DNA of 64,000 nt, from the NCBI GenBank assembly GCA_015233195.1, contig JADFYE010000008.1, positions 11,470 to 75,469 of the forward strand, written 5' to 3'. The notes beneath the pieces are model-generated. The model was not told where the DNA came from. It made no database searches and saw only the letters and a list, made by a program, of their open reading frames with translations. The stretch comes from Candidatus Omnitrophota bacterium (GTDB taxonomy: Bacteria > Omnitrophota > Gorgyraeia > Zapsychrales > Zapsychraceae). Positions 3,267 to 61,000 of the stretch are shown here, in pieces (positions within the stretch are counted from its first letter, which is position 1; each line of letters begins with the position of its first letter). Made by a program: the position numbers and the translations under genes.

Positions 3267-3270
3267 TAAT

Positions 3271-5778: not shown

Positions 5779-5800
5779 ATCAAATCTCCTTTTATAAAAA

Positions 5801-5862: not shown

Positions 5863-5941
5863 AAACACGTATTAGTTAAACAAAAATAACGTCGAAAAGC
5901 AATATAAATATGCTATTTGATATGGAGAGAAGAACAGAGAC

Positions 5942-15457: not shown

Positions 15458-15465
15458 TGTCTTAA

Positions 15466-16749: not shown

Positions 16750-16937
16750 GTTTATCTCCTTTTTATGTCCGTATTCGATTATGAATATAACAAACAAGGA
16801 TAAGGGTCTCAAGCATAAAACCATTTTTTTTATTTTTTTTTATGAAATTTTTCCGTCGGAAGGAGCTAAAACGCCAACTGCAGTCTATATAAATAATTAA
16901 TTAATGTAAAAAAATACTATTCTCAAATAATTACAGC

Positions 16938-17585: not shown

Positions 17586-17612
17586 AACCACTCCTTACTC
17601 AAATTAACCCAC

Positions 17613-17650
17613 AAAAAATTTTGCCCTGAACCCACGGTTCAGGGCAAAAT
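17613..17650 (-). terminator. rho-independent terminator
   Basis: 12-bp stem ttgccctgaacc (17621-17632) / ggttcagggcaa (17636-17647), then a T-run on the minus strand. Confidence 0.8.
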
Positions 17651-17684
17651 ATTACACTAAATCATATTTTCAAACAAGTGTTTT

Positions 17685-18530: not shown

Positions 18531-18695
18531 AAAACGCCTCCTCCTAATAATTTGTTGGGTTTTTATATAAAATGGATTTAAATTACAGAATACTTATAAA
18601 GTATAATATATATATGTTAATTTTGCCAGTCGGTTTACAAACCATAAAACCTTTAAATCCAAATATTTACAATCTTAAATAAAAAAATTTTTTAA

Positions 18696-21056: not shown

Positions 21057-21105
21057 GTTTTTACCCAATCAAATTTTAAAATTACAAGACTGTTCAAAAA
21101 TCTTA

Positions 21106-21951
21106 TTATTGGACGGTTGCGCCTTCAGTGAGACCTTTAATAATATGCTGCTGCATAAACAAATATATTAAAATGATTGGTAACGCCGCAATCGTCAATC
21201 CAGACATCAAGATCGGATAATCGACGCTATACGTACCTTGAAATACCATCAACCCTCTTTGTAAAGGCATCAAGGAAGTATCATTCAAAAGTAAATACGC
21301 CAAAATATATTCATTCCAAACATTCAATGAATTAAAAATCACAATAACTGCCAAAGCTGGACGAGCCAAAGGTAATGCCACGTGCCACCAAATACCCAAA
21401 CGACCGCACCCGTCGATACGCGCCGCGTCTTCCATATCATGCGGCAGTTTATCAAAAAATGTTTTTAATAATAAAATGCTGACTGATAACCCAACACTGA
21501 TCATACATAGTATATACCCTATCCGGGTGTTAGCCAAGCCGAGTTTAGTCATCAAAACATACATCGGAACGAAACTTCCGGGTAAAGGTATCATCATCGC
21601 AGCCAAAAACATGCCGAAGAAAAAATTTTTTCCTGGAAATTTAAGACGAGAAAACGCGTAAGCAGCCAATGAAGATACTAAAACAATCCCGACCACAACT
21701 GATACGGTATAAACCATACTATTTAAAAAATATATCCCGAACCCGCCATCTACCCAAGCCTGAATATAATTTGAAAAATGCAGATCCCTCGGAATTAAAG
21801 TTTTATCTGTAAAAACCGTCTGATTGGTCATCAAGGAGCATCTAATCATCCAAAATAAAGGAAATAAACAAGTCAAAGCCACAGACATTAAAAAAGAATG
21901 TATGATAACCGACTTAACCACTCCAATAGCTTTGTAACGTGAACCTTCCAT
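21106..21951 (-). CDS. carbohydrate ABC transporter permease (MalG-like)
   Basis: EAA-loop DAARIDGCGRLGIWWHVALPLARPAL. Six-TM profile. Confidence 0.9.
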   Translation of the reverse strand: MEGSRYKAIGVVKSVIIHSFLMSVALTCLFPLFWMIRCSLMTNQTVFTDKTLIPRDLHFSNYIQAWVDGGFGIYFLNSMVYTVSVVVGIVLVSSLAAYAFSRLKFPGKNFFFGMFLAAMMIPLPGSFVPMYVLMTKLGLANTRIGYILCMISVGLSVSILLLKTFFDKLPHDMEDAARIDGCGRLGIWWHVALPLARPALAVIVIFNSLNVWNEYILAYLLLNDTSLMPLQRGLMVFQGTYSVDYPILMSGLTIAALPIILIYLFMQQHIIKGLTEGATVQ

Positions 21952-22167
21952 TTAATATTATCCTTTAACATATTAAACAAATTTTTAGTTTTAAAATCTC
22001 CGGTATTTTGCGGAACGCTTGTTTACCCCTGCGAGTTAAACTTCACTCGACGATAATTCTCGCTCTCGTACAATAAAACCTGTACGAGCCATGCCCGCTC
22101 GAATTATCAACGTCCGCTTAAATACCTGTGACTTTAACTTACAAAATTTGTTTTTACACTATACTAT

Positions 22168-23103
22168 TCATTGCTTCGTTTTACTGCCAAAAGTTTTTGA
22201 TAATAATGATAAACAAACTAGAATAATCCCGAAAGTAACGCCCATAGAACACGCATACCCAAACCGATTTGTCCCCTGCATCGCTAACAAAATACGAGTA
22301 ACTGGCACTTCTGTATGATATCCTAATCCCTGGCTGACCATAGCTTTGATCAACACGAATACCTGCATGGAACCTAAAATTGTCAGGATCACGACCACAG
22401 AAATCACCGGAAGCATCATCGGCAAAGTCACATGACGAAACGTGCTCCATGCCCCTGCTCCGTCGACCTTGGCTGCTTCATAAAGCTGATGATCAATGGT
22501 CTGTAAACCAGCGAGCAGCATAATGAATCCCCAGCCGAACCCTTTCCAGCAATGAACCACAGCAATACATGTAAGCGCGGTTTCCGGATTAGACAACCAA
22601 TTATTCACCAGCCCAGGTAAACCGGATTGGACCAGCCAATAATTCAAAATCCCGATCTGTTGTCCGCCCTGAACTCCGGCATTTAAAATCCATTGCCAAA
22701 TCAAACCAACTACAACTTCAGATAATACTGGAGGTAAAAAGAAAATAACTTGATAAAATTTTTTCATGCGGATTTGGCGATCACAAGCCAAAGCTAGAGC
22801 AAATGCCAAAGCATTCTGGAACGTAAGCGCAATAAGAGTGATATAAGAAGCGTGCCAAACCGACGTCCACCAAACCTTATCTTTCATCAATTCAGCAAAA
22901 TTAGCTAACCCTACCCAACTGCGATCTGGACTTATACCATTCCAATCTTGTAAAGATAGACGGAAAATTTCAAAAAAAGGATATATATAAAAAATAGAAA
23001 AAAGAATAACTGCAGGCATAATAAAAGATAAATTCTTTAAATTATCTTGAATTATTAATGTTCTGGGCTTTAAATGCGTAGGGTTAGTTGCTACTACTGA
23101 CAT
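22168..23103 (-). CDS. carbohydrate ABC transporter permease (MalF-like)
   Basis: EAA-loop EAAKVDGAGAWSTFRHVTLPMMLPV. Confidence 0.9.
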   Translation of the reverse strand: MSVVATNPTHLKPRTLIIQDNLKNLSFIMPAVILFSIFYIYPFFEIFRLSLQDWNGISPDRSWVGLANFAELMKDKVWWTSVWHASYITLIALTFQNALAFALALACDRQIRMKKFYQVIFFLPPVLSEVVVGLIWQWILNAGVQGGQQIGILNYWLVQSGLPGLVNNWLSNPETALTCIAVVHCWKGFGWGFIMLLAGLQTIDHQLYEAAKVDGAGAWSTFRHVTLPMMLPVISVVVILTILGSMQVFVLIKAMVSQGLGYHTEVPVTRILLAMQGTNRFGYACSMGVTFGIILVCLSLLSKTFGSKTKQ

Positions 23104-23108
23104 TATTA

Positions 23109-24407
23109 CTATTTTTTCTTCTTAGACAATTGTTCTTGTTTTACTTTTTGGACTTCTTGAGCTATCTGCTCCGGCGTCTTCTCCCCGATCAAAATAGATT
23201 GAATACCTTTTAGAAATACTTCACTTACAATTGGATCTTCATTTAACGCCCAGAAAGTCGGATGTGTAGCCTGATCCATAACACTCGCAAAAGAAGATAA
23301 TACTTCAGGTATTTCAGCCAAAGCTTCACGGTTAGACGGTAAATTTTTGGTTTCTTTAGCTAAATAAGTTTGCTGGTCTTTTTCAGACAACCATTTTAAG
23401 AATGCAATAGCTTTATCTTTACGCGGCGACATATTATTAACTACCAAAGATGACCCTGCTCCTCCCCAAATCTTCATAGGCAAATTTGAATTAATAGCCG
23501 GTGGAAGCATAACTCCATATTCTAAAGAAGGATTCATACCATTATAAACATTAACGCACCATGAACCATTAAAAGCAAAAGCCGCTCGTTCTAAAGCAAA
23601 ATCCTGTTCAGCATATTTATTCGCCTTGGTTACAACCCCTTCAAGTAATGCGCCTTTATCCACCAATTGCTTAAACACATCCAATACTTTTATCCAATCC
23701 GGGTCAGTGTAAGGAACTTCTCCTCGATAAGTAGCCATGATTTTTTCTTCACCCATTATATTAAAAGCATAATTAGAAGAAAAACAATCCAGCATCCATA
23801 ATTCACCCCATCCGGAAACTAAACCAGATACTCCTACCCGCTTGAGCGCTTGAATCGCCTCTAAAAATTCTGAAAAAGTTTGCGGCGGAGCCTTAACTCC
23901 AGCTTTCTTCAACAATTTAACATTATATAACATTTGAATATTAGTCACGTCGAGCGGAACCCCATAAATACCCGGTTTAACGCCATAAACATTACCTTCT
24001 ACAAACCGGTTCACGTCTAAAGCTTTTGGAAAAAACCAATTTTCCCATTCACTATTATTAGCTTTAAAATCCGGCGTAAGATCCGCAATGAAACCGCCTT
24101 TAATGAATGCTGAAAAAATTTCTTTTTTATCGAGGATACCGTAAATATCTGGGAGGACTTTGGCTTGAGCTGAAGCTACAACTTTTTGAGTATATGCTTC
24201 TGAAGGAGCAAAAAGATCGATTTTAACTTTAATACCAGTTTGCTGTTCATATTTGGCGGCTAATTCTTCCAGCGCTTTATTGCGATCAATCATCCAATGC
24301 CACACTGAAATAGTATTTAAATCTTCTTGCTTTTTACCGCAACCTGAGCAACTCAACGAAAAAACCATCACCGCAGCAAACAGCATAATTCCGAGTTTAC
24401 GATCCAT
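23109..24407 (-). CDS. ABC transporter extracellular sugar-binding lipoprotein
   Basis: Lipobox LSCSGC. Family-1 solute-binding-protein-like sequence. First gene of the permease operon. Confidence 0.85.
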   Translation of the reverse strand: MDRKLGIMLFAAVMVFSLSCSGCGKKQEDLNTISVWHWMIDRNKALEELAAKYEQQTGIKVKIDLFAPSEAYTQKVVASAQAKVLPDIYGILDKKEIFSAFIKGGFIADLTPDFKANNSEWENWFFPKALDVNRFVEGNVYGVKPGIYGVPLDVTNIQMLYNVKLLKKAGVKAPPQTFSEFLEAIQALKRVGVSGLVSGWGELWMLDCFSSNYAFNIMGEEKIMATYRGEVPYTDPDWIKVLDVFKQLVDKGALLEGVVTKANKYAEQDFALERAAFAFNGSWCVNVYNGMNPSLEYGVMLPPAINSNLPMKIWGGAGSSLVVNNMSPRKDKAIAFLKWLSEKDQQTYLAKETKNLPSNREALAEIPEVLSSFASVMDQATHPTFWALNEDPIVSEVFLKGIQSILIGEKTPEQIAQEVQKVKQEQLSKKKK

Positions 24408-39023: not shown

Positions 39024-39683
39024 TCACCTGCTGGTTACTACCCCCTTACGAGGGCACATTGAATTAAGTACACATTGAGAACATCGAGGAGAAACCGGTC
39101 GGCAAATATTTTGACCCCAGACGACCAGAAGTGAATTATATGCTATCCAATAGCGTTTAGGCAATGTTTTTCTCAAAATATTTTCAGTCTCGTCAGGGCT
39201 TGACGTTGTAACATACCCAAACCTATTAGAAATACGGTGAACATGAGTATCCACGCAGATACCCGGCTTGCCAAATCCTTCAGTCAAGACCAGATTAGCG
39301 GTTTTCCTGCCTACACCTTTAAATGTCAATAACGTATCTAGATCATCCGGCACTTGACCATTAAATTCTTTTATAAGACGCTGACACAATTCAAGAATAG
39401 TCTTAGCTTTAGTATGATAAAACCCGACCGGATAAATCGCTTTTTCAATTTGTTTGGCGGTTAACTTTATCATAGCTTGCGGAGTATGCGCTAATTTAAA
39501 CAACCGTTCAGACACTGGAATAGTAGTCTCGTCTTTAGTGCGCAAACTCAACAGACAGGATATCCACACTAAAAATGGGTCGTGCCACTTTTTACCGACC
39601 ATAGTAACTGAGGGATCCGGTAGATTTTTTTCAGCTTGACGGAGTTTTTTAATGACTTGGGAAATGTTGTGATTGTTGACCAT
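39024..39683 (-). CDS. nth: endonuclease III
   Basis: HhH-GPD LLTFKGVGRKTANLVL, catalytic-region D, and a C-terminal 4Fe-4S Cx6Cx2Cx5C cluster (CRPVSPRCSQCVLNSMC). Confidence 0.9.
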   Translation of the reverse strand: MVNNHNISQVIKKLRQAEKNLPDPSVTMVGKKWHDPFLVWISCLLSLRTKDETTIPVSERLFKLAHTPQAMIKLTAKQIEKAIYPVGFYHTKAKTILELCQRLIKEFNGQVPDDLDTLLTFKGVGRKTANLVLTEGFGKPGICVDTHVHRISNRFGYVTTSSPDETENILRKTLPKRYWIAYNSLLVVWGQNICRPVSPRCSQCVLNSMCPRKGVVTSR

Positions 39684-42600
39684 TTAAATTTATCGGTGTT
39701 ATCGAGCTTATAACCGGTATAAAACCTAAAACATTTTCAGTTTCATAATTTTGACTAGTTGCTGATCCATCAAATAACATAGCACTATCGCCTTGCTCTG
39801 TAACTGAATATTTTTCCGGATTAAGATCAATACCACCGACTTGGTCAGAAACATTAATGGCACGGTCGCCATGCTTTTTTATCCATTCCTTCCATTCACT
39901 CTGCGTCATGGATGCTTCAATCGAAAGCCCCCTATTATCTGCTGTAACTTTAACACGCTGAAGCGAATATCCTGCTTGTTGTAAACTTCGTATAAAAGGA
40001 GTATCAGTCATTGCTGCAGCAACTTGACGCATAACCGAGCTATAAGCAGCTCCGGTTTTTTGTTTAAGATTTTCCATAATAGTGTAATGTACTCTTTTTG
40101 CCTCCCATACATTCGTAACCTTAGGAAATTTTTTAAGCAAAAAACTTTTTAACGCCAAATAAAATTTTATTTTCGTGGGTTTATTTGTAACATCCTCGAT
40201 TTTTATATCTATAGGCTGACCTGCGCTTTTTAATATCCTCCGGAAAACCTGCGTCAATAATCCATTCCTCCTAAGATCATAAGACACGCCCGTTTTCACA
40301 TCTTTTAATTCAAATGATAAAAATTTTAATTTATAAGATAACTTAACCTTATTACCCACAAATGTGCCTTCAATTTCTGCAGGATACTTGGATGCTAATA
40401 GTTGTCCATTTACAGTCATGTGCAACCCAAAATATTCTTCTGTACCATTACCTGCTATCCGCCATTCAAATACTTCCGGAATATATTTAGGATCGAATTT
40501 AAAAATATTACGTCTAGATAATTCAATTGTTCCATCTCCAATCGACAAGGAGACCTTTTCACCATCAACACTTGTGAGTGAAATTAAAGATTTAGCCTTA
40601 CGCGGAATTAAAACTTTTCCCTTATCGGGATCATACAACAAATCATATCTTTCCATCCCCATATAATAACGCAGAGGATACATAGGTCGATTATCGATAA
40701 AAATTGGGTCATTCAAAATCGATATCCTGCCCTGACCACCTTTAACTTGGGCGCTTACCAATGCAACTGGATCATCCTTAAAATTTTGTTTTACTTTTTT
40801 TACCACTGCCAAATTTTTAGGAGAAAGTACCGCTCCTGCCTGCATAGCCTTGTCACTAATGCTCGCAACTATTCCGAAATTACCATTTCCCCCTCGCTCA
40901 CTAAATGAAAACTTATCATATCCAGCACTTGAAAATACTTTAACAAATGGAGTATCCATTAAAGACTTTTCCATATCACTCAAAAAATCAGTATATGAAC
41001 CCCTTAACAACTTTTTGTACTCTCCCATATTTCCTTGAAACTTATTCGGCATATCAGGGAATACGTGTTTCCATTTTTTATATGCCTGATCTACTGCTTC
41101 TCTCGTCTGCTTATTATCAACTTGATCCACATAAAAAATCACAGGGAATGGAAACCCCTCTAAAAACATCCTCATAATAACCTGCAACAACCCCATACCG
41201 CTTAAATCTTGTTTTAAAATCGAACTGGTGCGGATCATATTAAAATACGCGTAAGGCAGATGAATAATAGCCCTGCCTTGTTCGTCAACATCCCATCTGC
41301 TCATCTGCATAAACATATTTAAATGTCCACCCTCTAACGTATATGCTTCTTCCTCCGCAATATGAAATCCGAAACCAATATTGAGTTTTTTAGTATTCAT
41401 ACTAATATTCAAACTCAAAGGACGGGGATCCCATTTTTGTTCAAAATTCAACACATTGTTTTTATCAATTACTATTTCTCGTCCATTAATTGATAACATC
41501 AAACCATCAGCCGACACAGGCGATACAAAAATTTTGTCATTTTTAAACGGCTGCAAAGATTCATCCAGCAATTCCCCTCTGTTTACATCAAAATAAAAAC
41601 TTTTTACTGATTTATTATCATCTAAACGTAACCTAAGATACGCTTTACCATTAACCATTTTCGGTTCTTTAGTAAACCAAACTCTTAATCCATCCCCTAA
41701 ATCCAAAGTTACACCAAGCACTATTCCTTGCATGCGCGCGATATTCTGATAAATCAATTCCGTAAATTTTTGTTTGGTTAATTTTTGCGATGCATTACCA
41801 GTCATGGCATAATCAATTTCTTGGTACACCCGTGGAGCAATTATCTTCTCCCATTGTGCAGGTGAAAATTCAGCAAACGCGTGTAAAGAATTTGAATTAG
41901 ATTCATCAAAATTAATATCCAGCCCTAACTCATGCAATGTCCTCCCTATAGGAGACCCCTTTAATCCTATATACATATAAGACATAAAATCTTTGTATTG
42001 TTCTGGCTGTTGTGGATCGAACCTATTCTTAATCACATTTAAAGAATCAGGAAAACTCAAAGGCATTTTCTCTCTATACTTACTCGTACGTTTTAAAAAA
42101 CTATATTGTTTGTCTAAAATTTGTTTAGTTCCATCATCACTTCGAACCTCTTCAAAAATAAATCCAAACCTGTCCGGCATAGCCGCAACAATATAACCAA
42201 GAACATTCGACATTACCCCTAAATTACTCAATGGTTTTTTCGTACCATTTTCTTCAACACTACTAAATTTTACATTTTTCAAAACCACATAATACCTGCC
42301 GTTTTTTAACTCAATGCCTCCGATTTTCATAAAAACGCCGTTTGTTGCATCCAACTTCTCATAAGCTTTCCCGTCAAATTCCAATTCAACATCTATAGGA
42401 TGACCATCTCTGATTTTTGTATTTAACACCAATTTTTGTGGCTCTAAACTATCTTCATATTTATGCTCAGGAGCCTCCGAGAGCAATACAGTTTTATAAA
42501 CATCCTCCTCCAAAATTGAAAGCAAAACTCCGTTTTCATGCTGTTCAAGATGAAAAGGTCCGTCTTCAATTGACTCAATACCATCGTTTTTACGGATTTT

Positions 42601-44007
42601 AGCAGTTTTTAAATTTACCAATAAAGTAGTATATTCATAATTCGGACGCATTACTCTGATTTGCGTATATTCTGTTCCTCCGATTATTTTCGGATATTTC
42701 ATCACCCATAAAAAAATATCATCACCTAAATTCAAGCGCGTACCCAATACTTGCCCATTCATATTCCGTGCTGCCCAGTTTAAACGTTGAAGCATCATTT
42801 CTTTTATAGGATCCGTACTATGCCTAACTGGAATCATCTCTAAATCAACCGATACATCTTCAAGCGGTCTGCTCTTAAGCCCCCTATTAATAGTATCGAC
42901 ACCATCTAAATAGTCATTTTCCTCTTGGAGCATCGCCAAATCTACTTGCACCCCGCCTGAAAAATATTTGCGCGGAATTATAGTCTGAGTATTAGGATCA
43001 TATTCTTCCCGAATCGCGTTTACCGACCCTTTTTTAAAAATATCTGAATAATTATTAAATATTCGCCCCTTAAAATCTTTTTCAGGACGGATAAGCCCCT
43101 CAGTTTTTTTCTGATCCGCGTATTGCCGCCCAAGAGCGTTTTTACTAAAATGCCTCTTATACCAGCCAGCTAAAATTAGAGAATGAAATATCTGACGCAA
43201 AGGAGCAAACTCTTTCCCCTCATTGACTTTTTTAGTCAAAATCGGAATGATAATCTGCTTTATAGCTTGTTGCTCACTCCCCCCATCTTTACTTTGTACA
43301 ACCCCGTGATCGCGAAGCGTTTTTACGGGGCTACCACCAGCTAAATATTCCCCCTCAGTCATCACCTTGAATTTTGCTTGGTCAACATAGACGCTATTCC
43401 CTTTAACTACTACGCTGACTTTATCTGGAACGATCCAGACCCGGCTTAAAATCCCCTCACTTACCTCTCTACCTCTTTCCTCTTTACCTCTTATTTCATA
43501 TATTTTAGAATAAATCTCATCCCAAAATGTCCGTCCTGTTTCATTATCTGGATTTAATAAACTTGCAGTGAGTTGTTTTAAAATATAATCCTGTGCCAAC
43601 ATATCCTGTCCCATCAAAGTCCGGTCAAAACCTTCAGGGATAATGCGTTCTTTTTCTTTAGGCGATAAGTTCACCCATAAATCTTTTTCCGGAACAGTCA
43701 ACCCTGCCATAAAATAATTAATTAACTTTTCAGCCTCAACCTTAAATGCCGCATCAGTAAGCTGAACATCGCCCCTATCAACAATAAAATTAAAATGAAA
43801 CGGATTTTGTTTATCAATAGTCATGCCTTGAATTAAAACCGGCATTTGCACATTGGAAACAACAGGCACTGCAGAATTCTGGGGGAGAATTTGACCAAAA
43901 GAAACAACAATAGAATTTTCAATAAAAAAACAAATAATAAAAAAAAGACATAAAATCTTTTTTGATAAAACTATAAAGCTTATATAAGACTTTGTACCTA
44001 TACACAT
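39649..44007 (-). CDS. giant modular secreted protein C (~1452 aa): N-cap + three divergent ~320-aa tandem modules + GGIDLN C-cap
   Basis: N-cap aligns to A and B. The track ATG at 44043 lies inside the era terminator hairpin, so ATG 44007 (MCIGTKSYISFIVLSKKILCLFF...) is the more likely start. The 3' end overlaps nth by 35 nt. Confidence 0.88.
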   Translation of the reverse strand: MCIGTKSYISFIVLSKKILCLFFIICFFIENSIVVSFGQILPQNSAVPVVSNVQMPVLIQGMTIDKQNPFHFNFIVDRGDVQLTDAAFKVEAEKLINYFMAGLTVPEKDLWVNLSPKEKERIIPEGFDRTLMGQDMLAQDYILKQLTASLLNPDNETGRTFWDEIYSKIYEIRGKEERGREVSEGILSRVWIVPDKVSVVVKGNSVYVDQAKFKVMTEGEYLAGGSPVKTLRDHGVVQSKDGGSEQQAIKQIIIPILTKKVNEGKEFAPLRQIFHSLILAGWYKRHFSKNALGRQYADQKKTEGLIRPEKDFKGRIFNNYSDIFKKGSVNAIREEYDPNTQTIIPRKYFSGGVQVDLAMLQEENDYLDGVDTINRGLKSRPLEDVSVDLEMIPVRHSTDPIKEMMLQRLNWAARNMNGQVLGTRLNLGDDIFLWVMKYPKIIGGTEYTQIRVMRPNYEYTTLLVNLKTAKIRKNDGIESIEDGPFHLEQHENGVLLSILEEDVYKTVLLSEAPEHKYEDSLEPQKLVLNTKIRDGHPIDVELEFDGKAYEKLDATNGVFMKIGGIELKNGRYYVVLKNVKFSSVEENGTKKPLSNLGVMSNVLGYIVAAMPDRFGFIFEEVRSDDGTKQILDKQYSFLKRTSKYREKMPLSFPDSLNVIKNRFDPQQPEQYKDFMSYMYIGLKGSPIGRTLHELGLDINFDESNSNSLHAFAEFSPAQWEKIIAPRVYQEIDYAMTGNASQKLTKQKFTELIYQNIARMQGIVLGVTLDLGDGLRVWFTKEPKMVNGKAYLRLRLDDNKSVKSFYFDVNRGELLDESLQPFKNDKIFVSPVSADGLMLSINGREIVIDKNNVLNFEQKWDPRPLSLNISMNTKKLNIGFGFHIAEEEAYTLEGGHLNMFMQMSRWDVDEQGRAIIHLPYAYFNMIRTSSILKQDLSGMGLLQVIMRMFLEGFPFPVIFYVDQVDNKQTREAVDQAYKKWKHVFPDMPNKFQGNMGEYKKLLRGSYTDFLSDMEKSLMDTPFVKVFSSAGYDKFSFSERGGNGNFGIVASISDKAMQAGAVLSPKNLAVVKKVKQNFKDDPVALVSAQVKGGQGRISILNDPIFIDNRPMYPLRYYMGMERYDLLYDPDKGKVLIPRKAKSLISLTSVDGEKVSLSIGDGTIELSRRNIFKFDPKYIPEVFEWRIAGNGTEEYFGLHMTVNGQLLASKYPAEIEGTFVGNKVKLSYKLKFLSFELKDVKTGVSYDLRRNGLLTQVFRRILKSAGQPIDIKIEDVTNKPTKIKFYLALKSFLLKKFPKVTNVWEAKRVHYTIMENLKQKTGAAYSSVMRQVAAAMTDTPFIRSLQQAGYSLQRVKVTADNRGLSIEASMTQSEWKEWIKKHGDRAINVSDQVGGIDLNPEKYSVTEQGDSAMLFDGSATSQNYETENVLGFIPVISSITPINLNGQQSQHFPSH

Positions 44008-44031
44008 AATAAAAGTATATAGTATAAGCAC

Positions 44032-44063
44032 AAAAAAAACCATAAACCACGTTGGGTTTATGG
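44032..44063 (-). terminator. rho-independent terminator of era
   Basis: 9-bp stem ccataaacc (44040-44048) / ggtttatgg (44055-44063) directly after the era stop, followed on the minus strand by T8 (44032-44039). Confidence 0.75.
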
Positions 44064-45274: not shown

Positions 45275-46180
45275 CTATGCCACTTTAGCAAATGCTAAAT
45301 ATTTCGCTCGTCGTATTTTTACATCTGCTAAAGTCAATTTAGCAGTTTTATCCATTGCAAAACCCTCCACATTAAACGATGAACATATAGTCGCATATAC
45401 CAATGCTTGACGTATAGACGTTTCATTAATTTTTTTAGCCGCGCTTAAAAATCCCATAAGCCCGCCTGCAAAAGTGTCCCCTGCGCCAGTTGGATCAACC
45501 ACTTTCTCGACCGGATAAGCAGGGAAACCGCACATAAACTGTTTTGAATAAAATAAAACCCCATGCTCGCCTTTTTTAATTACTATAAATTTGGGACCTA
45601 ATGCAGCTAAAGCTTTTGCGGCTAAAATCAAATTATTCTCGCCAGTAATGTCCTGAGCTTCTTTATCATTAGCCACAAATAAATCGACCTTCTTGATCAA
45701 TTTCAACAAAGCAGTTTTTTGCGTATGAATCCAAAGATTCATACTGTCTAATCCGACGAATTTCGGAGATTTCATCAAAGATAAAAATTTATCCTGAGAA
45801 ACAGGATCAATATTTCCTAAAAATACATTTGAAATATTATACTGCGCTTCAGAAATGCTAGGCTGATAATTACACAAAACGCCGATTTCAGTAGCATGAG
45901 TAATTGCCGCATTAAAATTTTCTTTTTTATACTCCCCATCCCATTGAAAAGTCTTACCTTCTTCAATTTGTATCGACGAAACATCCACGCCTTTAGCTTT
46001 TAAAAAAATCATATATTTTTTAGGGAAATCTTTCCCCACTACGCCTGCAATCGCCACTTTAGTAAACAAACTCGCACTCATCGAAAAATGCGAAGCTGAC
46101 CCGCCAAGTAATCCACGCTTTTCACCAGACGGTGTTTTTAAATTATCCAATGCAACTGTACCCATGACGATTAAAGCCAT
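45275..46180 (-). CDS. PfkB family carbohydrate kinase
   Basis: C-terminal DPTGAGDTFAGG signature and a ribokinase-like fold pattern. Confidence 0.85.
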   Translation of the reverse strand: MALIVMGTVALDNLKTPSGEKRGLLGGSASHFSMSASLFTKVAIAGVVGKDFPKKYMIFLKAKGVDVSSIQIEEGKTFQWDGEYKKENFNAAITHATEIGVLCNYQPSISEAQYNISNVFLGNIDPVSQDKFLSLMKSPKFVGLDSMNLWIHTQKTALLKLIKKVDLFVANDKEAQDITGENNLILAAKALAALGPKFIVIKKGEHGVLFYSKQFMCGFPAYPVEKVVDPTGAGDTFAGGLMGFLSAAKKINETSIRQALVYATICSSFNVEGFAMDKTAKLTLADVKIRRAKYLAFAKVA

Positions 46181-46182: not shown

Positions 46183-46602
46183 TTATTCTCCTATAATTTT
46201 AATTAATACTCGTTTTCGTCTTTTGCCGTCGAACTCCCCATAAAATATCTGTTCCCAAGTACCAAAATCTAATTTTCCATTTGTAACAGCCACTACCGCT
46301 TCCCGTCCCATAATCTGCCGTTTTATATGCGCGTCAGCATTATCTTCGCCGGTATCATTATGCCGGTATTGATTGACCGGTTCATGCGGAGCTAATTTTT
46401 CCAGCCACCTCTCATAATCACCTAGAAGCCCGCTTTCATCATCATTAATATAAACGCTTGCAGTTATATGCATCGGGTTAACCAAACATAATCCTTCTTT
46501 GATCCCGCTCTTATCAATCGCAGCTTGCACCTGGTCAGTAATATTAATAAATTCTCTGCGCTGTTTAGTTTGAAAAAATAATTCTTCGCGATACGATTTC
46601 AT
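46183..46602 (-). CDS. YjbQ family (UPF0047) secondary thiamine-phosphate synthase-like protein
   Basis: [14 protein letters not shown]...[13 protein letters not shown]...[18 protein letters not shown] is typical of the YjbQ family. Confidence 0.8.
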
Positions 46603-47696
46603 TTATATTCTCTCCCAACTTTAATTCTTTCTTTCAACGGCGGATGATCATAAAAAAACAATTTCTCGAACGTCGAAGGATTTTGTTTAGCTAAATTCAT
46701 CTCACCTAACTTCTCCATTAAAGAAACAAACGCCTCCGGCTTCTGCGTCATTCGCAAACAAAACTGATCAGCCTGTTTTTCAACCAACCGGCTATACCAA
46801 TTAAGAGGCATAGCAGTGCCTAAACTAAATATAGTGAACACAATCGCAAACATAGGTAAAAACGCAATGTCAGCCACGCCCCGCATACCAAAACTAGTTG
46901 AAAAATGTGATAAAAATGCCGCGACCAAATAAAAACCGATAAGCACCACTACCCCATTTACCAATAACAATTTCAAAATATCCCGATGCACATAATGACC
47001 CAGTTCATGCGCTACTACTGCCTCGATCTCCTCAACCGTATATTTTTCGACTAAAGTGTCACTTAACACTACCCGACGGGAATTACCCATACCGCAAACA
47101 AACGCGTTGGCTTTTTTAGTCTTTTGCGAAAAATCAATCATATAAATATCTTTGAGCGCGACTTTGCATTTCTTGAACATCCCAAAAATCCGATCTTTCA
47201 ATTCAACATTATTAATCGGTAAATATTTATAAAACAAAGGTACAATAATATTCGGAGTTATCCTAGCCATTACCACAGCCATAAATACCCAAAACAACCA
47301 TGCCCCAACCCACCAGCTCGACGGAAAATGTCTTAAGAAAAAATATACCACTTCAACCAAAAGCATGATTAAAACTAAGCCCAGGATTGAGTGTTTCAGG
47401 TCATCAGTCCACCACTGTAAAATATTTTGATTTGATAATTTGAATTTATGCTCCCAAACAAAACCGAGAAAAAAATTCAAAGGAAGATGAAAAAAATAAA
47501 GAGTGACGGAGAATATCAACAAAAACACCGCGTTTACTATCCACAAATTCGACGATATACCAGAAGCCCAATCCCTGACCAGGGCGCTATATCCTAAAAA
47601 GAAAAAAGCTAATATCACAACCAGATCTAAAAATAGCCCAATAAAAAAACAGCGGTTCTTAACATTATTATACTGGTCTGATCCATTTGTCGTCAT
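46599..47696 (-). CDS. M48 family (Ste24/HtpX-like) membrane zinc metalloprotease
   Basis: [10 protein letters not shown] zinc motif, multiple N-terminal TMs, downstream E ligand region. Confidence 0.85.
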
Positions 47697-52818: not shown

Positions 52819-54477
52819 ATGCAATCAAATCCCGACTCAAATTTAACTAAATTTATTAAAAAATACCAAAATATTTTTTTCCTATGTTTAACTATTATAA
52901 CCGGATTATTTTTTGTCCTGCCTTTATCCAATTTTCAGGCTTACTTAGCCCAAGGTGATCATGGACGAGAATTATACGGATATTGGTTAACTTCACAAGG
53001 AGGATTACCTTACCGCGACTTTACCCACATGTTCGGTCCATTCATGCCAGAATATTTTGGTTTATTATTTAACATTTTTGGAGCTACAGTTCAAACCGCT
53101 CTCCTCGGACAAAACTTATTTATCGTATTAAACGGTGTGCTGATTTATTTAATCTGCAAACAATTCAGCTCAAATTTATTTTCGTACACATTTGCTACAG
53201 TTTATTGGGGGCTGCGCGATTTTGAATTTTTCTACACCTATAACCACACTGCCGGAATATTTGCCATTCTGGGCGTGGTATACATGCTGATCCGTTATCT
53301 AAATTCATACTCAATTAAATTTTTATACGCGGGTTTTACTTTCAGCGCTTTATTAATGTTAATCCGGTTAAATATGGGGATAGCTTTTTGGTTCGGGTTT
53401 GGTCTATGCGTAATACTGATTCACATTCTCGACCAAAAACCCATGACACCAAACATGTTAAAACATTTTTTTATAAGCGCGCTATGTTTGCCTATTCCGG
53501 TTGCACTAATATATGGAATACTGCTTTATGGATTACCTAATTATGCAATATACCAAAGCTTTCCCTGGGGCAATGACCAAAGAACTGACGTGTCACATTC
53601 AATCACCCAATGTTTGATAAACCTTCGGGAATATGTCATCTCAATATTCTCGCGCTTTAAATCTTATATCGTCGCTGGTTGGGCAATAATTTTAAGCAGT
53701 TTATATATCGGGTTAATGGTATTGCAAAAAAAATTTACTGAACCATCTGACCGCAAATTATTAATCCAATCATTACTGTTGGGCATTTTAATCATCCTCG
53801 GTTTACACGAATTTTTAGCCAGTAGTGTTTATTACCGGGTTGAATGGGTAATCCCGATATTTTTTATTTTGTTAGGAACCATGCTGCAAATGATATTTAA
53901 CAAAGGCAATAAAATATTTTCTTTATCCATCGTACAAACGACTATTTTAATACTTATCCTGGTCTTGTCCTACAATAAATTTAACAGCTATTTAGCCCTA
54001 ATAAATAAAGCCGCTAAACCCACGTCTTGTTTAAATTGGAACGGATCAAAAGTATGCACCTTCCAAGAGCCGGCATGGTTCCTGACTGTTTATCAAACTT
54101 TAGATTTTATTGACAAAAATATTCCGTCAAATGAACCAATATTCTGTGTGCCTTACGACGCTTTATATTTATTTTTAACCAAACATAAAAGCCCGACCCG
54201 GGAAATAATGTTGTTCCAACATTTCCGTATCCCGCCAGAACAAGATAAGGCGATCGTTGATACCCTCGAAAAAAAACATGTGAAATGGGTAATAATTTCT
54301 AACCGTGCAATATCTATCGAAGACGGCATGGGAGTATTAGGTCAGGATTATTGTCCGCAATTAGCAGCTTATCTGGAAAAGAATTTTGAAATTGTTAAAG
54401 GATTTGGTCAATGGAACAACCAGCCCAGCTGGGCGTGGAATCATGCGACGAGGATATTAAGAAGGAAATTATTTTAA
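52819..54477 (+). CDS. polytopic membrane protein, GT-C (ArnT/PMT-like) glycosyltransferase candidate
   Basis: At least 10 predicted TMs followed by a soluble C-terminal domain. The architecture is GT-C-like, but no catalytic motif was confidently seen. Confidence 0.5.
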   Translation: MQSNPDSNLTKFIKKYQNIFFLCLTIITGLFFVLPLSNFQAYLAQGDHGRELYGYWLTSQGGLPYRDFTHMFGPFMPEYFGLLFNIFGATVQTALLGQNLFIVLNGVLIYLICKQFSSNLFSYTFATVYWGLRDFEFFYTYNHTAGIFAILGVVYMLIRYLNSYSIKFLYAGFTFSALLMLIRLNMGIAFWFGFGLCVILIHILDQKPMTPNMLKHFFISALCLPIPVALIYGILLYGLPNYAIYQSFPWGNDQRTDVSHSITQCLINLREYVISIFSRFKSYIVAGWAIILSSLYIGLMVLQKKFTEPSDRKLLIQSLLLGILIILGLHEFLASSVYYRVEWVIPIFFILLGTMLQMIFNKGNKIFSLSIVQTTILILILVLSYNKFNSYLALINKAAKPTSCLNWNGSKVCTFQEPAWFLTVYQTLDFIDKNIPSNEPIFCVPYDALYLFLTKHKSPTREIMLFQHFRIPPEQDKAIVDTLEKKHVKWVIISNRAISIEDGMGVLGQDYCPQLAAYLEKNFEIVKGFGQWNNQPSWAWNHATRILRRKLF

Positions 54478-54726: not shown

Positions 54727-54804
54727 TGGCGGACCCGACGAGATTTGAACTCGCGATCTCAAGCGTGACAAGCTTGCATGTTAACCAGACTACACCACGG
54801 GTCC
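54727..54804 (-). tRNA. tRNA-Asp (anticodon GTC), CCA encoded
   Basis: Reverse complement GGACCCGTGGTGTAGTCTGGTTAACATGCAAGCTTGTCACGCTTGAGATCGCGAGTTCAAATCTCGTCGGGTCCGCCA folds as a cloverleaf; anticodon loop is TTGTCAC. Confidence 0.93.
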
Positions 54805-54829
54805 TATATTTACTTCTAAGGCGATAAAA

Positions 54830-54902
54830 TGGGCGGTGCTGGGCTCGAACCAACGGCCGCCTGAATGTAAGTCAGGAGCTCTACCAACTGAGCTAACCGC
54901 CC
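54830..54902 (-). tRNA. tRNA-Val (anticodon TAC)
   Basis: Reverse complement GGGCGGTTAGCTCAGTTGGTAGAGCTCCTGACTTACATTCAGGCGGCCGTTGGTTCGAGCCCAGCACCGCCCA; anticodon loop is CTTACAT. No encoded CCA. Confidence 0.93.
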
Positions 54903-55013: not shown

Positions 55014-58000
55014 TTAAACTGCTAACTTATGCTCCATGGGCTCAGTTGTGTCCAAACCTAATAATGGTAACGGACTTGCCAGTGGCGTGATTTTAATTAT
55101 AAACGCTTCAACGCCAGTAAAATCGCCTCTCTGGAATTCTGCAACCATTGCTGGATCAAATTGAAATTCAACCCCTTTCCCCTCTACAGCTACATCTAAC
55201 CCCATTTTATTTCCATTAAGATCAATACCACCCGGAGCCTGACGTGCTTCTAACTTTTGTCTTTTTTGTTCAATCATGCGTAACGCACTTTGACGTAATG
55301 CATTGTTAGCAGAAAGCCACCTACGAGCAAATACTTCTTGTACATCTAATTCTGAAGCTTTTCGCGCTTTTCTAACATTTCTGCTCATATCTCTCAAGGC
55401 TTTTAACTCTTGTAGATTTCTCTTTTTATCACCATTGTCCACTGCCATTGCTTGGTCCTTCGCATCTACATATTTAACTGTAAAAACAAAAGCCCCTTCT
55501 TTTTTTGCAAAAACTAATAAATCACGGATTCTATATGATAAATCGTCTGCCGCTTCTCCCTTAGCAAGTTTTTCTTTGGTCAGCCATTTAAGAATATCTT
55601 GCCGCGCCTGCAGTCTTGCGTTTTCCTCTGCCTGGGCGAAAGAACTAACAGTATTTAACTCAATGGTATAAACATTTCCTCTACTTTTCAAAAATTGTTT
55701 AGTCAATTTTGTTGTTTCTTTGAGCCAAACTATTTGCTCCGCAATCATTCGTAAAACCTCTTTATCCAATCCGAAACTCTCGACTTTTTCTTTAAAAATT
55801 TCGACAGAGGTAAGCATATATAATACGGCCCGTAAAAGTTCATATCCACTCCTTGATTCTTCAGGAAGGATTTTACTTATACTGGTTTCCCATTCAAAAA
55901 AATCTGCCTTTGATATAACGCTATAAATATATTTCATATCAACAACTACTGCCATTTTTTCCGCTTCTTTTAAAATGTCAGCTTCAGACATTCCTTGTTT
56001 GCGCAAAGCACTAAAATGGGCTTTATTCTCTTTTATTATGCTCTGCATCCGCTCTTGCCGATCTTCAACTATTGCTTTACCCATATCTAAAATTTTTCTA
56101 AATTCCCAATACCGACTGATCCAGTGTTTCACTTGATCCATTTTCAATATCGTTCTAATTTTTTTATCGCCCATCTTTTGCTCATGAACATACATATTAT
56201 CCGCGAGTATTTGTACAGCAATCTCTAATTCATACAAATCTTCGCAAGAAGAACTTAATAATTGATAAATAGGATACATTATTAAATTATCATTTAAAGT
56301 AATGCCTGAAACTACTTTATAAAAAAATCTTTTTAATCTCGTTTTTATTGCGTCTTCCTCACTATTGATTCTTTTCTGCAATTGCGAACGAACATACTGC
56401 TTTGCCCTCTCACTTAATTGTCCGGAACCATCTTTCAAAAGAAACGACGCTGGTATAGACAACATCGCCGCGTCAACAGTTATGGTTACGCGTCCAGATC
56501 GCGTTTCTCCAGCTTTCAAAAGACGTGAACCGCCGGGCTGTCCCTGCATATTAGGACCATTGGCTGTGGTTGTTACAGATTCATCGCCCATAATACCAAA
56601 ATTTTCTCCACCTTCTTTACTTCCATCCCAAACATGAAATACACCATACCCCTCTTTATTCACAAACATATCTCCAGACATTTCAACTTTAGTGATAACG
56701 CCTCTTTTGTGATCCCGTGTAATAGAGGTAATAACACCTTCTTGGGACTTCACCAAAAATGTGTTATCATAGGTACCGCCTCGCAATATTTGCGGCGTAT
56801 TAAGATTTTTATTCCCTAACGCCAACAAATTTCCCGTAGGAATTAGCTCATCACTAACTTCAAACACTTTTTGAGCTCCACGCACCTGAATATCTGTTTC
56901 TCCTGGTGAAAATATTCTCTTTGGATGGACACCAAAATCAGCGATAACTTCATAACCGCCATCTCGTTCTGCTTCTGCAGACGTTGTCAAATTTTGCGTT
57001 TCAACATCAATGGTCAACTCTTTACCTTTGAAACTATATGTAACCGTGGTTTTAGAATGACCCAGCGCTTCCGCAAGACCTGGATAATCCGTAGTTTCAA
57101 ATGACGCTTGAACAACAATAGCTCCGCCTTGTTCTCGGACTTCAAAATCTTTCCATGTGTCAGCGCCGCGTCCGACTCCGTGCATAAAATTTTTTGTTGG
57201 TCTTCCGTCCAACACAGCCCTTGTGAGTCCCTGAATCTCTTCAGGCTTAAGTTCAAACATTCTTCCGTTGCGAATGACCGTTCCATTCTGGATCCGGTTA
57301 ACAAATGGCATCATAAAAAACAACCCGCTGCCAATTTCATTAGGAGCTTCAGACATGAGCAAGGTTTCCTTGCCGTTGACAATATGGGAGACTACGCGGA
57401 ACCCTTTAGTAGCGATGACCGTTATGCTTGTTTCAGGTTTTTGCGGCTCACCTTTTTCCGTGAATTTTAAAAATACTTGTCCCTGCTTTACAGACATTTC
57501 AGCTTTATACTTACTATTTGTGCCGTTGATACCTTTAATGGCGTTTTCAAACAAAGCAGACTTTGAGTCAGACGCCGCGTTCATTGCCGCGTCGCCTATC
57601 ACTTTCCATTTATCAGGATTCGCATCCAGAAAATCAAAAAGCTCTTTCCAATTAATATGCATTATGTGCCGCGCACTGCCAAATCCATTATTAATTAAAA
57701 AAGCTGCAGAACGCACGTTGAAAAGATCACTTATTCTGCGCATAGGCAAAGCATCAATCTTTTGTTTTAAAATTTCCCACGGAACTTTTTTCATTTGGTT
57801 GCCATCAAACCTTATTACTACAAAAGGCTCCTCCTTATTTTCCATTTGACTACAAATAAGAAAACCATTGCCATATGACACAAAATCATTTGGACCCAAA
57901 TTAACGTTTATAGATTTGCCATTAATTATCAAATCCCACTTGTATTTTCCTTCTTCTCTTGATCTAAGCTTAATTGTTATCACCTTATCTTTGTTAAAAA

Positions 58001-61000
58001 CCACCTGCGTAAAATTTGAAACCGATAGATTAGAAACTTCTACTTGCAACGAAGATCCTTGAATCATATATTGTTCATCGCCTAAGGCAAGACCGGTTCT
58101 AGCTTTCCAATCATTCCTTGGGAAAGTATACATTAAAAGCTGAATAAAACCAGAAGCTGATACCCTTAATTTAAACCGCACTTCTTTCTTTTTTACAGGA
58201 TCTTGATATGAACCGATTAAATCTATTTTGTCTTGAAGGACAGCATTAGCCGTCCAATCTTTTTCTAAAATAACCTGCCCAAATTTTGCAAGTAATTTAG
58301 GAATATTGTCATATTCTGCAATTGTCACAGATAAAAATTTATCCGCAGTCAAAGTCTTGCCTAAAAATTCTCGGGTCATACCCATAACATCCATACGACT
58401 TAATATCATTTGCTGCGTTAAAAATACTACCGCGTCTTGTGCAGATTTATCCAAACCCAACGTCTTGATTAATGCTGCCTCACTAGGCGTAAAAAACATT
58501 GCCTCATCTGTACCGCTTAGGTCTTCATTTAATTTTTCAATATCAGCTTTAACTCCGTCCATGTCTACACTTTTATTCATATATGGATCATTCCATCCAT
58601 TTATTTCTGCTGATGCAATAACCTTAGAACCAAAATTAATCACCACAGTCTTAATGGTTCTGCCCTCTCCCTCACTTCTTTGTATTCCATCTACTTTATA
58701 ACTAAAAAGTTTTCGGTTACCATAAACAATATCAAAACTCGCAATAGTAAAAAGAGCTGGTCGCGTTGCTGTTGGCTGTACTATTTCCGATACTATTGTT
58801 AATTTATCCGCAAGGTCTTCTTTGCCAATAATTTTAAATAATTGTTGGCACAAAGCTAATCCGTCTTCAGAACTCATAAACACATTATCACTTAAAACTT
58901 TTTCCAACCCAGCCGCAAATGAATCTACAGAATCCGCTAGCTGTAATTGGAAAAGAAACCAAGTTCGTATAAATTCATTCGCGTTTTCTATACCCTTTAT
59001 TTCTTTTTTCTGATTTTGCTTATTCTGCAATCTGATTGCGACAACAACCGCTGCTTTAAAAAATTCTTTGTTACTTAAATACGAGGAAACATTCTTAAAT
59101 TCTGCTAGCTGTGCCTGAGGCTTAAAACTTAAAAACTCTTTGCACCATGCAATATTCTCAGGAGTTGCTGCTTTTAATTCATTACCTAATAACTCAAAAA
59201 ACTTTTTTACATTACCTGTCCATGAAAACTGATCCGGATTATATAACACTTGAGATTCTAATAAGAACCTACGCATAGCATCTCTATCTTCATCGGTGCG
59301 CTGACTCCTTAATTGTTTAGCGAGTGAACCTGCTAGCTGCGGTCTAGGCGCTCGAAACCTAATCATCATCGCCATATCGCGTTCGCGTATTCCCATTTTT
59401 GTGTTTTTGTCTACAGAACAATTACACTTTGCCGCAAGCGCAAATTTAACCATTTCTTTTAGTGTTATTCTAAGTAGTTTTGCTTGTTTACCAAACATCT
59501 TCCAATCCGCTTTAACACGAACGTGTTCCGATATTCCCCCAAAAGCATCAACCGTAAATTCCCCATTTTTGTCGTCTGCTATCCAAACCTCTTGCACCAC
59601 AGGAAAAGCTTTAACATCGTACCCTATAATAGTCTTAACTTCAGGGGCAATCTTTCCACCTAGAGATTTGACAATACTAGCTTTTTTAATAACTTGATCT
59701 AATAATTTCTGTATTGTTGCTTTTTGTGCTCGTGGTTGCGCCTTCTTTTGAATATATTCCGCGACTGCAATGTTTAAATGATCATTTGCTACATCAACTG
59801 CCTCCCTTAATACGGTCGGAGTTGAAACCATAGCGCGATCCCGAGAAGAGATTCCTTTTATTTTCTCATTGCTCACAGAAAAACCGTAGAGAGCGACAAT
59901 CAATTTAACAAATTCCATTTTAGATAAACTCATATGTTTTAGGACATCTTCCACCTCATGTACGTAAGTAAATAATCCATGCGCGCTTATAGTAAAATTT
60001 TGCCCTTCAGGATTAACTCTGATAAAATTTCGAGGATCCTTCCAGGAAACTTTAACGTCATAAGCTTCTTTAAGAGGCATTATTACTGGGTAGCCCATTA
60101 TTTCTTTAATTTTTGTATCAACCTCGCCCCCTAATGATTCAAGCATCCGTGCATATTTTAAAAATTTAGGCGCCCAAAATTCTACTTGTGGTCGAGTAAC
60201 AATAGGCAAAGCACGTTCCGCATCATACTGCTTAACAAACACTTGCAAGACTGCGTTGACCGCATCCTTTGCTGTTCCTCGTACAATTTTTTTACCCTTG
60301 GCTTTTGTTGCCATTGCTGCATCAACTGGCACGCCTAAATACGCAGCTACTTTTTGCTTTAGCTTTCTAATCGCTATTTCCGCAGTTTCTCTAATAGCTT
60401 CGTTTTTAGGGTCTCCCAAAATTTTTTCATTTAATGCCGTAAATATTTTGAATAAAACCTTTGATAAATCTTCATCAGTTTTTACCAAACTTGTATCAAC
60501 TTTCATCTGCCCAAAATAATAAGTTTTTACCTCTTTTACATGTTCATCTGTTCCCCATATTACGTTTTCTCTTTCTTGGGCATTCGGATTATCTGTCAAT
60601 TGCAGGCTATATTCTAAGTGTGCTAGATTAACAATTAACATTTCATTCAATTTTCTCAATAATGATCCCACAGATACTGACTCAATAAAAACCGTACCTT
60701 CTTGTTCAGACATAATGAAAAAATTTTGTCCTGGCACCTTACGCCTCAAATCCCAAATAAACTCAGCTTTTGTCCTATTAATACCCGTAAAATGATCCCC
60801 CGCATTTGTTTCCGAAAACAGAACATCTTCTCTCGGTATTGTAGCGCTAGGGTCTATATATCTTATCTTAACTGCTGGCGATTCTTCTCCTGCTATGTTA
60901 ATCGCGCGCGCTGTTGCTCTTTCAAAAACCTGGTCAAAAGAAACAACCCTTTCTCGTAATGGATAATTTTCATCTACGCCCAACATCGCCTTATCTAACT

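Follow-up and report, generated by a model that had tools for sequence, protein, structure and literature searches.

The locus analysed here is a 64,000-nucleotide stretch of the genome of a Candidatus Omnitrophota bacterium (GenBank assembly GCA_015233195.1, contig JADFYE010000008.1), hereafter the window, which carries four members (A, B, C and D) of one protein family scattered among housekeeping genes. Open reading frame (ORF) D encodes a carrier of about 15 cassettes, including an aldose 1-epimerase of the galactose-mutarotase fold and a hexokinase (Table 1). A HMMER search with the epimerase module recovered the full-length protein as its best match, 100% identical over the module: NCBI MBF0483915.1, annotated as 'hypothetical protein HQL25_04330 [Candidatus Omnitrophica bacterium]', with 3,372 aa encoded on an 86-kb contig. 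Residue numbers refer to this protein unless given as window-D, the part encoded within the window. On balance, we favour the reading that D holds an active, cofactor-free mutarotase cassette inside the Sec-exported, junction-delimited cargo array of an Omnitrophota protein, a moderately confident proposal built on sequence comparison and structure prediction.

The aldose 1-epimerase cassette and its catalytic residues

Exactly 369 codons lie between the two DAAM motifs that flank the epimerase cassette. The excised module matched the Pfam profile PF01263 (Aldose_epim) at E=2.5e-14 and 53.8 bits (gathering cut-off 27 bits), covering positions 14-298 of 299. With the whole of ORF D as query the match was E=2.6e-12 (window-D aa 2194-2506), and at E<=1 Pfam found nothing in D beyond this domain, Hexokinase_1 and Hexokinase_2; an NCBIfam search with the module gave no match. 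A profile built from the D module and 19 relatives (20 aligned modules) had Bacillus subtilis GalM (4BZF/3MWX) as its best match among PDB sequences (E=3.6e-52), with further matches to CA_C0697, Slr1438, Escherichia coli YphB, human GALM and yeast YN9A. An AlphaFold2 (AF2) model made on the same alignment reached a predicted local distance difference test score (pLDDT) of 94.6 and a predicted template-modelling score of 0.93, and consisted of one N-terminal alpha-helix followed by a beta-sandwich. When this model was compared with the PDB using Foldseek, ranks 1-12 were all galactose-mutarotase-family structures, led by 4BZE (E=1.8e-18, template-modelling score 0.70/0.80). Profile and fold thus confirm the module as an aldose 1-epimerase domain, beyond chance resemblance, as the preliminary description of this DNA had proposed for a galactose-mutarotase-like module between two DAAM seams. 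Taken alone, the domain is ordinary, Pfam-detectable and of a well-known enzyme family.

When 1.84 billion cluster representatives were searched exhaustively with HMMER, 38 relatives of the module emerged. The close relatives shared 40-48% identity with it (E 1e-45 to 1e-81) and were each an internal segment of a large protein; the same cassette, at this level of identity, occurred in at least nine other large proteins of differing architecture, and we infer that cassettes move between carriers as independent units. The 20-module profile retrieved only five stand-alone epimerases in a word-indexed protein search, in which the module alone as query matched nothing, and a metagenome scan with a seven-sequence alignment added three loci. 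One related carrier bears the IMG name 'galactose mutarotase-like enzyme/CheY-like chemotaxis protein'.

In the mutarotase family, a conserved glutamate and the histidine of a G-x-H motif form the base/acid pair, whilst another histidine, an aspartate and an arginine position the sugar. In Lactococcus lactis GalM, E304 is the base and H170 the acid, with H96, D243 and R71 holding the substrate; the corresponding E. coli GalM residues include H104, H175 and E309, of which E309 and H175 are the catalytic glutamate and histidine. The sites assigned to this set in the preliminary description, namely a P-[FY]-x-NRI motif, NFMHGVG and ADFGVHPKRIF as first and second histidine regions and a later acidic GDES segment, were all borne out: the module contains PFVNRI and MGDES, and its NRI, HG, G-x-H, D-x-x-F and E-P motifs pair one to one with those of B. 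subtilis GalM. Across the 20 aligned modules R96, H219, D272 and E334 in module numbering (R2613, H2736, D2789 and E2851 in D) were invariant, while H134 (H2651) and Asn2612 were nearly so. The conservation of the His/His/Glu set, which had been put forward for checking, therefore extends to the aspartate and arginine, and since all five residues are present, D has not undergone the loss of all catalytic residues that had been considered. The domain is complete, probably catalytically competent and of the B. subtilis GalM/YoxA-like branch. By analogy with this family, it would use general acid/base catalysis to open, and close again, the pyranose ring of free aldoses, with Glu2851 and His2736 acting as catalysts and His2651, Asp2789 and Arg2613 holding the sugar.

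The same fold also occurs in non-catalytic form in glycosidases, which appeared as weak Foldseek matches at ranks 16-18, and a part in adhesion has been suggested for the giant proteins of Omnitrophota (PMC10066038). The cassette could accordingly be pictured as a lectin-like beta-sandwich adhering to the glycans of a partner cell, and the first histidine is indeed absent from three relatives (P0014, P0015 and P0017). We regard this as very unlikely for D, which keeps all five catalytic and binding residues, four of them invariant in the 20 modules although these share only 21-47% identity with D; persistence at such low identity argues for selection on catalysis.

The residues next to the catalytic pair depart from those of the clade. 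Where relatives have HPF after the catalytic histidine, D has HPKR, with a Lys-Arg pair seen in D only, and it has D-E-S around the glutamate where they have V-E-P. Codons 56916-56924 (minus strand), following His2736, encode Pro-Lys-Arg against Pro-Phe-x in the clade relatives. This basic pair on the rim of the active site could hint at a negatively charged substrate, for example a hexose phosphate. An alternative order of reactions places a hexose-6-phosphate epimerase after the kinase, and the module would then be a YeaD/YMR099c-like hexose-6-phosphate 1-epimerase acting on the hexokinase product. Besides the Lys-Arg pair, this explanation draws on the fold match to yeast YMR099c (E=3e-11) and on the company of related cassettes, which sit with transketolase/transaldolase and PGM-like sugar-phosphate enzymes. 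We nonetheless hold it to be quite unlikely, as the module is clearly nearer the free-sugar GalM/YoxA branch in both sequence (E=3.6e-52) and fold (E=1.8e-18), and no YeaD-type chain appeared in the PDB sequence search at E<=1e-3.

The hexokinase cassette and its pairing with the epimerase

The hexokinase cassette comprises both lobes of the enzyme, matched by Hexokinase_1 (PF00349, E=1e-30, window-D aa 448-631) and Hexokinase_2 (PF03727, E=9e-23, window-D aa 637-863). Its best PDB relative is human HK2 (E=2.9e-52), making it eukaryote-like, and the sugar and nucleotide motifs DxGGTN, FSFP, NDT, GTGxN, GE and DGS are all kept in the alignment with HK2. By these features the cassette is intact.

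The preliminary description placed the two enzymes ~1500 aa apart in one polypeptide and considered their co-occurrence functional rather than accidental. Their presence in one chain stands, with the distance corrected to a gap of ~1,330 aa between the Pfam domains (window-D aa 863-2194). The functional reading was not borne out by comparison: no homologue of hexokinase turned up in the 37 other epimerase-cassette carriers, in the ~100 N-cap-family ORFs described below or in the three further metagenome loci. Within the clade, epimerase cassettes instead co-occur with transketolase and transaldolase (P0004), an ROK kinase (P0020), an HAD phosphatase/mutase (P0033), an NAD-dependent sugar epimerase (P0038) and a PRK/uridine-kinase domain (P0036), and they also lie beside receiver (P0002), ankyrin (P0022) and HEAT (P0017) modules. 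Because the partners vary from sugar enzymes to receiver, ankyrin and HEAT modules, the cassettes look shuffled. We would describe the epimerase cassettes as loosely associated with sugar metabolism, and the hexokinase-epimerase pair as unique to D among the carriers examined. The classical partner of a mutarotase is galactokinase, and hexokinases take both glucose anomers. A dedicated relay from mutarotase to hexokinase in D is plausible, but the comparison lends it no support.

The carrier family, its junctions and predicted export

The N-terminus of D missing from the window, which had been suggested for recovery, lies in the first 378 residues of the full-length protein. It consists of a classical Sec-type signal peptide, MFRSKFSIFSRLISLFILIAFLTTSVLPAQA, comprising basic n-region, hydrophobic core and AQA/QG site, followed by the N-terminal domain (N-cap) of ~380 aa common to paralogs A, B and C and other family members. 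The premise that D is exported like its paralogs thus holds as a prediction, drawn from this signal peptide and N-cap; transfer of the carrier across the cytoplasmic membrane is what we infer from them. At the opposite end, only the last ~70 residues of D matched 80 family loci by tblastn, with a family consensus of GGIDLN ... FDPAM ... G..P.I..I.P..LLGL. Because only the two ends match between members and the middles are unrelated, the family (N-cap/GGIDLN) can be defined as signal peptide, N-cap, unrelated middle and C-terminal domain.

An alignment of the N-cap detected at least 555 loci in a collection of species-representative genomes, nearly all labelled Omnitrophota. At E<=1e-10 it also retrieved over 1,500 proteins, again almost all from this phylum. 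Almost all of these matches are unnamed or 'hypothetical', with two named after a cargo domain (ankyrin and NUDIX). Neither the N-cap nor the C-terminal domain matched Pfam or NCBIfam; no Pfam match was found for paralogs A, B and C and no NCBIfam match for D and A, whilst B and C each had one chance-level NCBIfam match (E~0.07, far below cut-off). The C-terminal 136 aa matched none of the curated NCBIfam/Pfam sorting and secretion models (type IX secretion system C-terminal domain (T9SS CTD), PEP-CTERM and similar), and a structure model of the N-cap (pLDDT 69) had no significant match among PDB folds. A scan of the genome collection with the N-terminal 400 window residues of D returned no relative. 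Family genes are dispersed among housekeeping genes, often in tandem, and around the 80 loci no conserved neighbour such as a protease or secretion system was found, the only recurrent 'neighbour' being an antisense shadow ORF.

The middles carry cytoplasm-type enzymes and regulators. Among 35 complete ORFs of the family, Pfam identified PGI (5.6e-199), PGK (2.7e-107), PGM, a DeoC/LacD aldolase, UDP-glucose pyrophosphorylase (UDPGP), PPDK_N, HEAT and TPR repeats, many helix-turn-helix types and receiver domains, to which database matches of the N-cap add ankyrin, NUDIX and ribosomal S9 domains. Such cargo was noted in family ORFs of the 80 loci (L001-L080) and in proteins P0054, P0119, P0132, P0140 and P0148, in all cases behind a Sec signal. 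The cassette of unassigned role directly upstream of the epimerase is homologous to aa 1116-1387 of paralog A (~8223-9038, minus strand) and present in two copies in P0008.

The cassettes of D are delimited by a recurrent D-x-A-M motif, observed 16 times against 0.43 expected from composition. In the cargo regions of 65 family proteins it occurs 166 times against 9.3 expected (~18-fold), making it the most enriched short pattern, with DAAM itself ~50-fold enriched; 36 of the 65 proteins have at least two copies. The motif coincides with domain boundaries: motifs at 811 and 1252 enclose the Pfam span of the hexokinase (aa 826-1241), and motifs at 2514 and 2887 that of the epimerase (aa 2572-2884). 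In the epimerase model a helix begins right after DAAM, and a beta-strand closes the preceding cassette. D-x-A-M junctions were also seen in paralog A and in loci L008, L012 and L013. As the junction codons differ from site to site, the constraint lies on the protein; a role as recombination site or internal start was rejected on these variable codons and the absence of a Shine-Dalgarno-like sequence. Epimerase-cassette carriers of other architecture lack D-x-A-M and bracket the cassette with recurrent motifs of their own, such as SSP[VIL] in P0021 (seven times against 0.14 expected, flanking the cassette at aa 2855 and 3178) and RSE[LQ][RH] in P0018 (24 times against 0.03 expected). Different recurrent junction-like motifs were noted in the large multi-enzyme epimerase carriers P0018, P0021, P0035 and P0013. 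Candidate roles of the D-x-A-M junctions are proteolytic processing, recognition and structural capping.

Enrichment of this degree, placed exactly at domain borders and paralleled by the repeats of P0018 and P0021, speaks for a polyprotein or effector array that is delivered to a host or prey cell and cut at D-x-A-M there or on the way, freeing hexokinase, mutarotase and the other cassettes to act in a foreign cytoplasm in the manner of MARTX toxins. The cargo needs ATP or DNA, and the ankyrin, HEAT and TPR cassettes are of kinds typically met in effectors. Omnitrophota have been inferred to be host-dependent or predatory (PMC10066038), and cleavage of their giant proteins has been proposed, with the cleavage points described as not known, by West-Roberts et al. 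(bioRxiv 10.1101/2023.11.21.568195). D itself, however, has no protease domain by Pfam, the 80 loci showed no conserved neighbouring gene, no delivery apparatus was identified, 29 of the 65 family proteins have one copy of D-x-A-M or none, and a helix that starts right after the motif would also suit a structural helix-capping junction. We judge this account of D unlikely. Its extension to the whole family, in which N-cap/GGIDLN proteins would be Sec-exported bacterial polyproteins cut at D-x-A-M and acting inside host or prey, with other giant classes using junctions of their own (SSPV, RSELR), seems to us more doubtful still.

In a hydropathy scan, most family members had no hydrophobic segment besides the signal peptide. 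D differs in a 64-aa cassette whose hydrophobic helices (aa 580-598 and 609-629) are its only transmembrane-like element after the signal peptide, and the sidedness of its enzymes depends on whether this cassette forms a hairpin or a single span. The enzymes might be tethered to the membrane by the N-terminal and/or internal hydrophobic segments and face the cytoplasm of the producer, serving its own hexose entry by mutarotase and then hexokinase. The ATP requirement of hexokinase would be met there, a sugar ABC importer, a GH2-like enzyme and a LacI regulator are encoded in the window, and a stand-alone hexokinase occurs in only 25 of 176 complete Omnitrophota genomes, according to a recent preprint (bioRxiv 10.64898/2026.06.07.730766). 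This use in the bacterium's own metabolism is in our estimate also unlikely, to much the same degree as delivery and cleavage, given that the N-terminus of D has the n-h-c layout and AQA site of a cleaved Sec signal, that most family members lack a second hydrophobic segment to return cargo inside, and that the cargo is hypervariable across species, with the hexokinase-epimerase pair unique to D, unlike a housekeeping pathway.

Several points weigh against an active mutarotase in an exported carrier. It is paradoxical for cargo that depends on ATP or binds DNA to follow a Sec signal, and the export inference could be wrong; possible ways out are delivery into another cell, a mistaken inference of export, or non-catalytic roles of the cargo. 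The signal-peptide and topology calls come from sequence inspection and a Kyte-Doolittle hydropathy scan rather than a trained predictor. If just one helix of the aa 571-634 cassette spans the membrane, everything after it, the two enzymes included, would be on the cytoplasmic side of the producer itself. Because the N-cap and C-terminal domain have no recognisable homologues, no secretion route can be named. Finally, HPKR in place of HPF and DES in place of VEP stand beside two catalytic residues, and activity or substrate may differ accordingly. In the exported-array reading that we favour, the carrier would cross the cytoplasmic membrane with the mutarotase as one of ~15 cassettes, and the mutarotase, being independent of cofactors, could act at whatever place the carrier reaches. 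As the intact hexokinase of D needs ATP, its presence would imply a cytoplasm as the final place of action of the cargo, probably inside a host or prey cell.

The remainder of the window holds ordinary genes, including MnmG, MnmE, PurH, Era and TatC. Free-standing hexose-phosphate enzymes are also encoded in this genome, as judged from a stand-alone PGI-family gene (4504-5868, minus strand; Pfam E=2e-26, rather weak for PGI) and a PfkB-family sugar kinase (45275-46180, minus strand). A sugar-utilisation cluster (14447-24407, minus strand) comprises a LacI regulator, two Pfam-less ORFs, a TPR protein, two ABC permeases, a solute-binding protein and, at 18696-21068, a protein with TPR and a glycoside hydrolase family 2 (GH2) TIM barrel. 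The only peptidase seen in the window is an M48/Ste24-like membrane metallopeptidase (46599-47696, minus strand) with a five-helix CAAX-protease N-terminal domain. The minus strand carries nearly all genes and the GC skew is negative throughout (-0.07 to -0.31), placing the window within one replichore; a 552-aa ORF without Pfam match (52819-54477) is among the few plus-strand genes. Genes for tRNA-Asp and tRNA-Val (54727-54902) lie just downstream of D.

Table 1. Coordinates of carrier D, its cassettes, junctions and active-site codons, and of the paralogous genes
Feature	Position in window	Strand	Residues of full-length D	Basis or remark
Carrier ORF D	55014..64000	minus	379-3372 (window part)	TAA stop 55014-55016; uninterrupted to window edge
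Aldose-1-epimerase (galactose-mutarotase fold) cassette	56475..57581	minus	2518-2886 (window-D 2140-2508)	Pfam, PDB profile, AF2, Foldseek
Upstream junction DAAM	57582..57593	minus	2514-2517	
Downstream junction DAAM	56463..56474	minus	2887-2890	Directly after last epimerase beta-strand
Asn2612-Arg2613 of P-F-x-N-R-I sugar-binding motif	57294..57299	minus	2612-2613	Aligns to PNRI of B. subtilis GalM
His2651 (NFMHG), first conserved His, substrate-positioning	57180..57182	minus	2651	Aligns to NHLHG of 4bzf
His2736 (GVHPKR), probable catalytic acid/base His of G-x-H-P motif	56925..56927	minus	2736	Aligns to GYHTTF of 4bzf
Asp2789 (TYDNTF), substrate-positioning	56766..56768	minus	2789	Aligns to LDDVF of 4bzf
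Glu2851 (MGDES), probable catalytic base of E-P motif	56580..56582	minus	2851	Aligns to CPEP Glu of 4bzf
Hexokinase cassette	61380..62702	minus	811-1251	Bounded by DKAM and DIAM junctions
64-aa cassette with two hydrophobic helices, possible membrane hairpin	63231..63422	minus	571-634	Kyte-Doolittle; junctions at aa 571, 635
Cassette of unassigned role upstream of epimerase	57594..58508	minus	2209-2513	blastp 24% identity, E~1e-14
C-terminal family domain, PGGIDLN ... FDPAM ... G..A.I.KITP......LLGL plus charged tail	55017..55235	minus		tblastn; consensus of 35 family ORFs
Paralog A	6588-12383	minus		Signal peptide, N-cap, GGIDLN C-terminus
Paralog B	30048-34472	minus		Signal peptide, N-cap, GGIDLN C-terminus
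Paralog C	39649-44043	minus		Signal peptide, N-cap, GGIDLN C-terminus

Significance and comparison with known systems

The weight of these observations lies in the carrier rather than in the mutarotase. It belongs to a very large Omnitrophota family that lacks annotation and numbers over 1,500 proteins, four of them encoded in this single 64-kb window. In this family, glycolytic enzymes that depend on ATP and domains that bind DNA follow a Sec signal and lie between two conserved caps. The junction motif is the most interesting by-product, as it supplies concrete candidate processing sites; if the junctions are indeed processed, they would provide testable cleavage points that are absent from earlier work on giant Omnitrophota proteins. 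At stake is whether such proteins are single chains or polyproteins in host-dependent nanobacteria, and whether metabolic enzymes are delivered to partner cells. Pathway reconstructions that count stand-alone genes only may also overlook hexose-entry enzymes held inside such carriers.

The closest counterpart of the epimerase module is the B. subtilis GalM/YoxA type (4BZE/4BZF/3MWX), which shares its fold and with which the NRI arginine, both histidines, the aspartate and the glutamate align. Identity is ~17%, and the D module is an internal cassette, whereas GalM is a free cytoplasmic enzyme of ~325 aa; the module additionally has an N-terminal helix and an 11-14-aa insert (NLTTSAEAERDGGYE) common only to its closest relatives. 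Yeast Gal10p (1Z45; Foldseek E=8.9e-15), a mutarotase with a UDP-galactose 4-epimerase, similarly joins a mutarotase to a hexose enzyme. It is, however, a conserved two-domain cytosolic fusion of the Leloir pathway. In D, ~1,330 aa separate the mutarotase from its partner, a hexokinase; the pair is not kept in other carriers, and export of the carrier is predicted. The hexose-6-phosphate mutarotases (YMR099c, 2CIR; E. coli YeaD) share superfamily and fold and would be the logical enzyme after hexokinase, but the D module is closer to the GalM branch (2CIR E=3e-11 vs 1.8e-18) and has no sequence-level match to them.

MARTX toxins have conserved N- and C-terminal regions and a central effector array that is freed by an internal cysteine protease domain (CPD), and they are not known to have a Sec signal peptide. 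D resembles them, by analogy only, in its conserved ends, variable enzyme cassettes and short recurring inter-cassette site; it differs in lacking RTX repeats and any Pfam match to the CPD or another protease, and in bearing a Sec signal peptide. Membership of D in the MARTX, T9SS-CTD or RTX/type I secretion system (T1SS) groups was rejected, their defining domains being absent by Pfam and NCBIfam. Exported mutarotases are known in simpler form, as in the secreted mutarotase of Acinetobacter. A further precedent, for an exported or envelope-linked mutarotase domain, is Xanthomonas XAC4296, a fusion of lytic transglycosylase and aldose-1-epimerase (PMC9143381). These are single- and two-domain proteins, respectively, with no hexokinase and no cassette array, unlike D.

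A further comparison is with the multi-enzyme giants of Omnitrophota itself. As catalogued in two preprints, these tile sugar-related Pfam domains (PGM, ROK, PF03727, receiver) on one chain, most carry signal peptides and/or transmembrane helices, and their cleavage into pieces has been proposed (bioRxiv 10.64898/2026.06.07.730766; 10.1101/2023.11.21.568195); a comparable 'sugar-metabolism module' has been described among Omnitrophota proteins with 10,000 aa or more. No description of the N-cap/GGIDLN family or of any junction motif was found in the sections consulted, or by term searches, of Nielsen & Lui 2026 and West-Roberts et al. 2023. The likeness is one of domain content only, given that the catalogues take proteins of at least 10,000 aa, whereas D has 3,372 aa and conserved caps at both ends. 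The D carrier is, in this respect, an undescribed variant of the multi-enzyme proteins lately catalogued in Omnitrophota.

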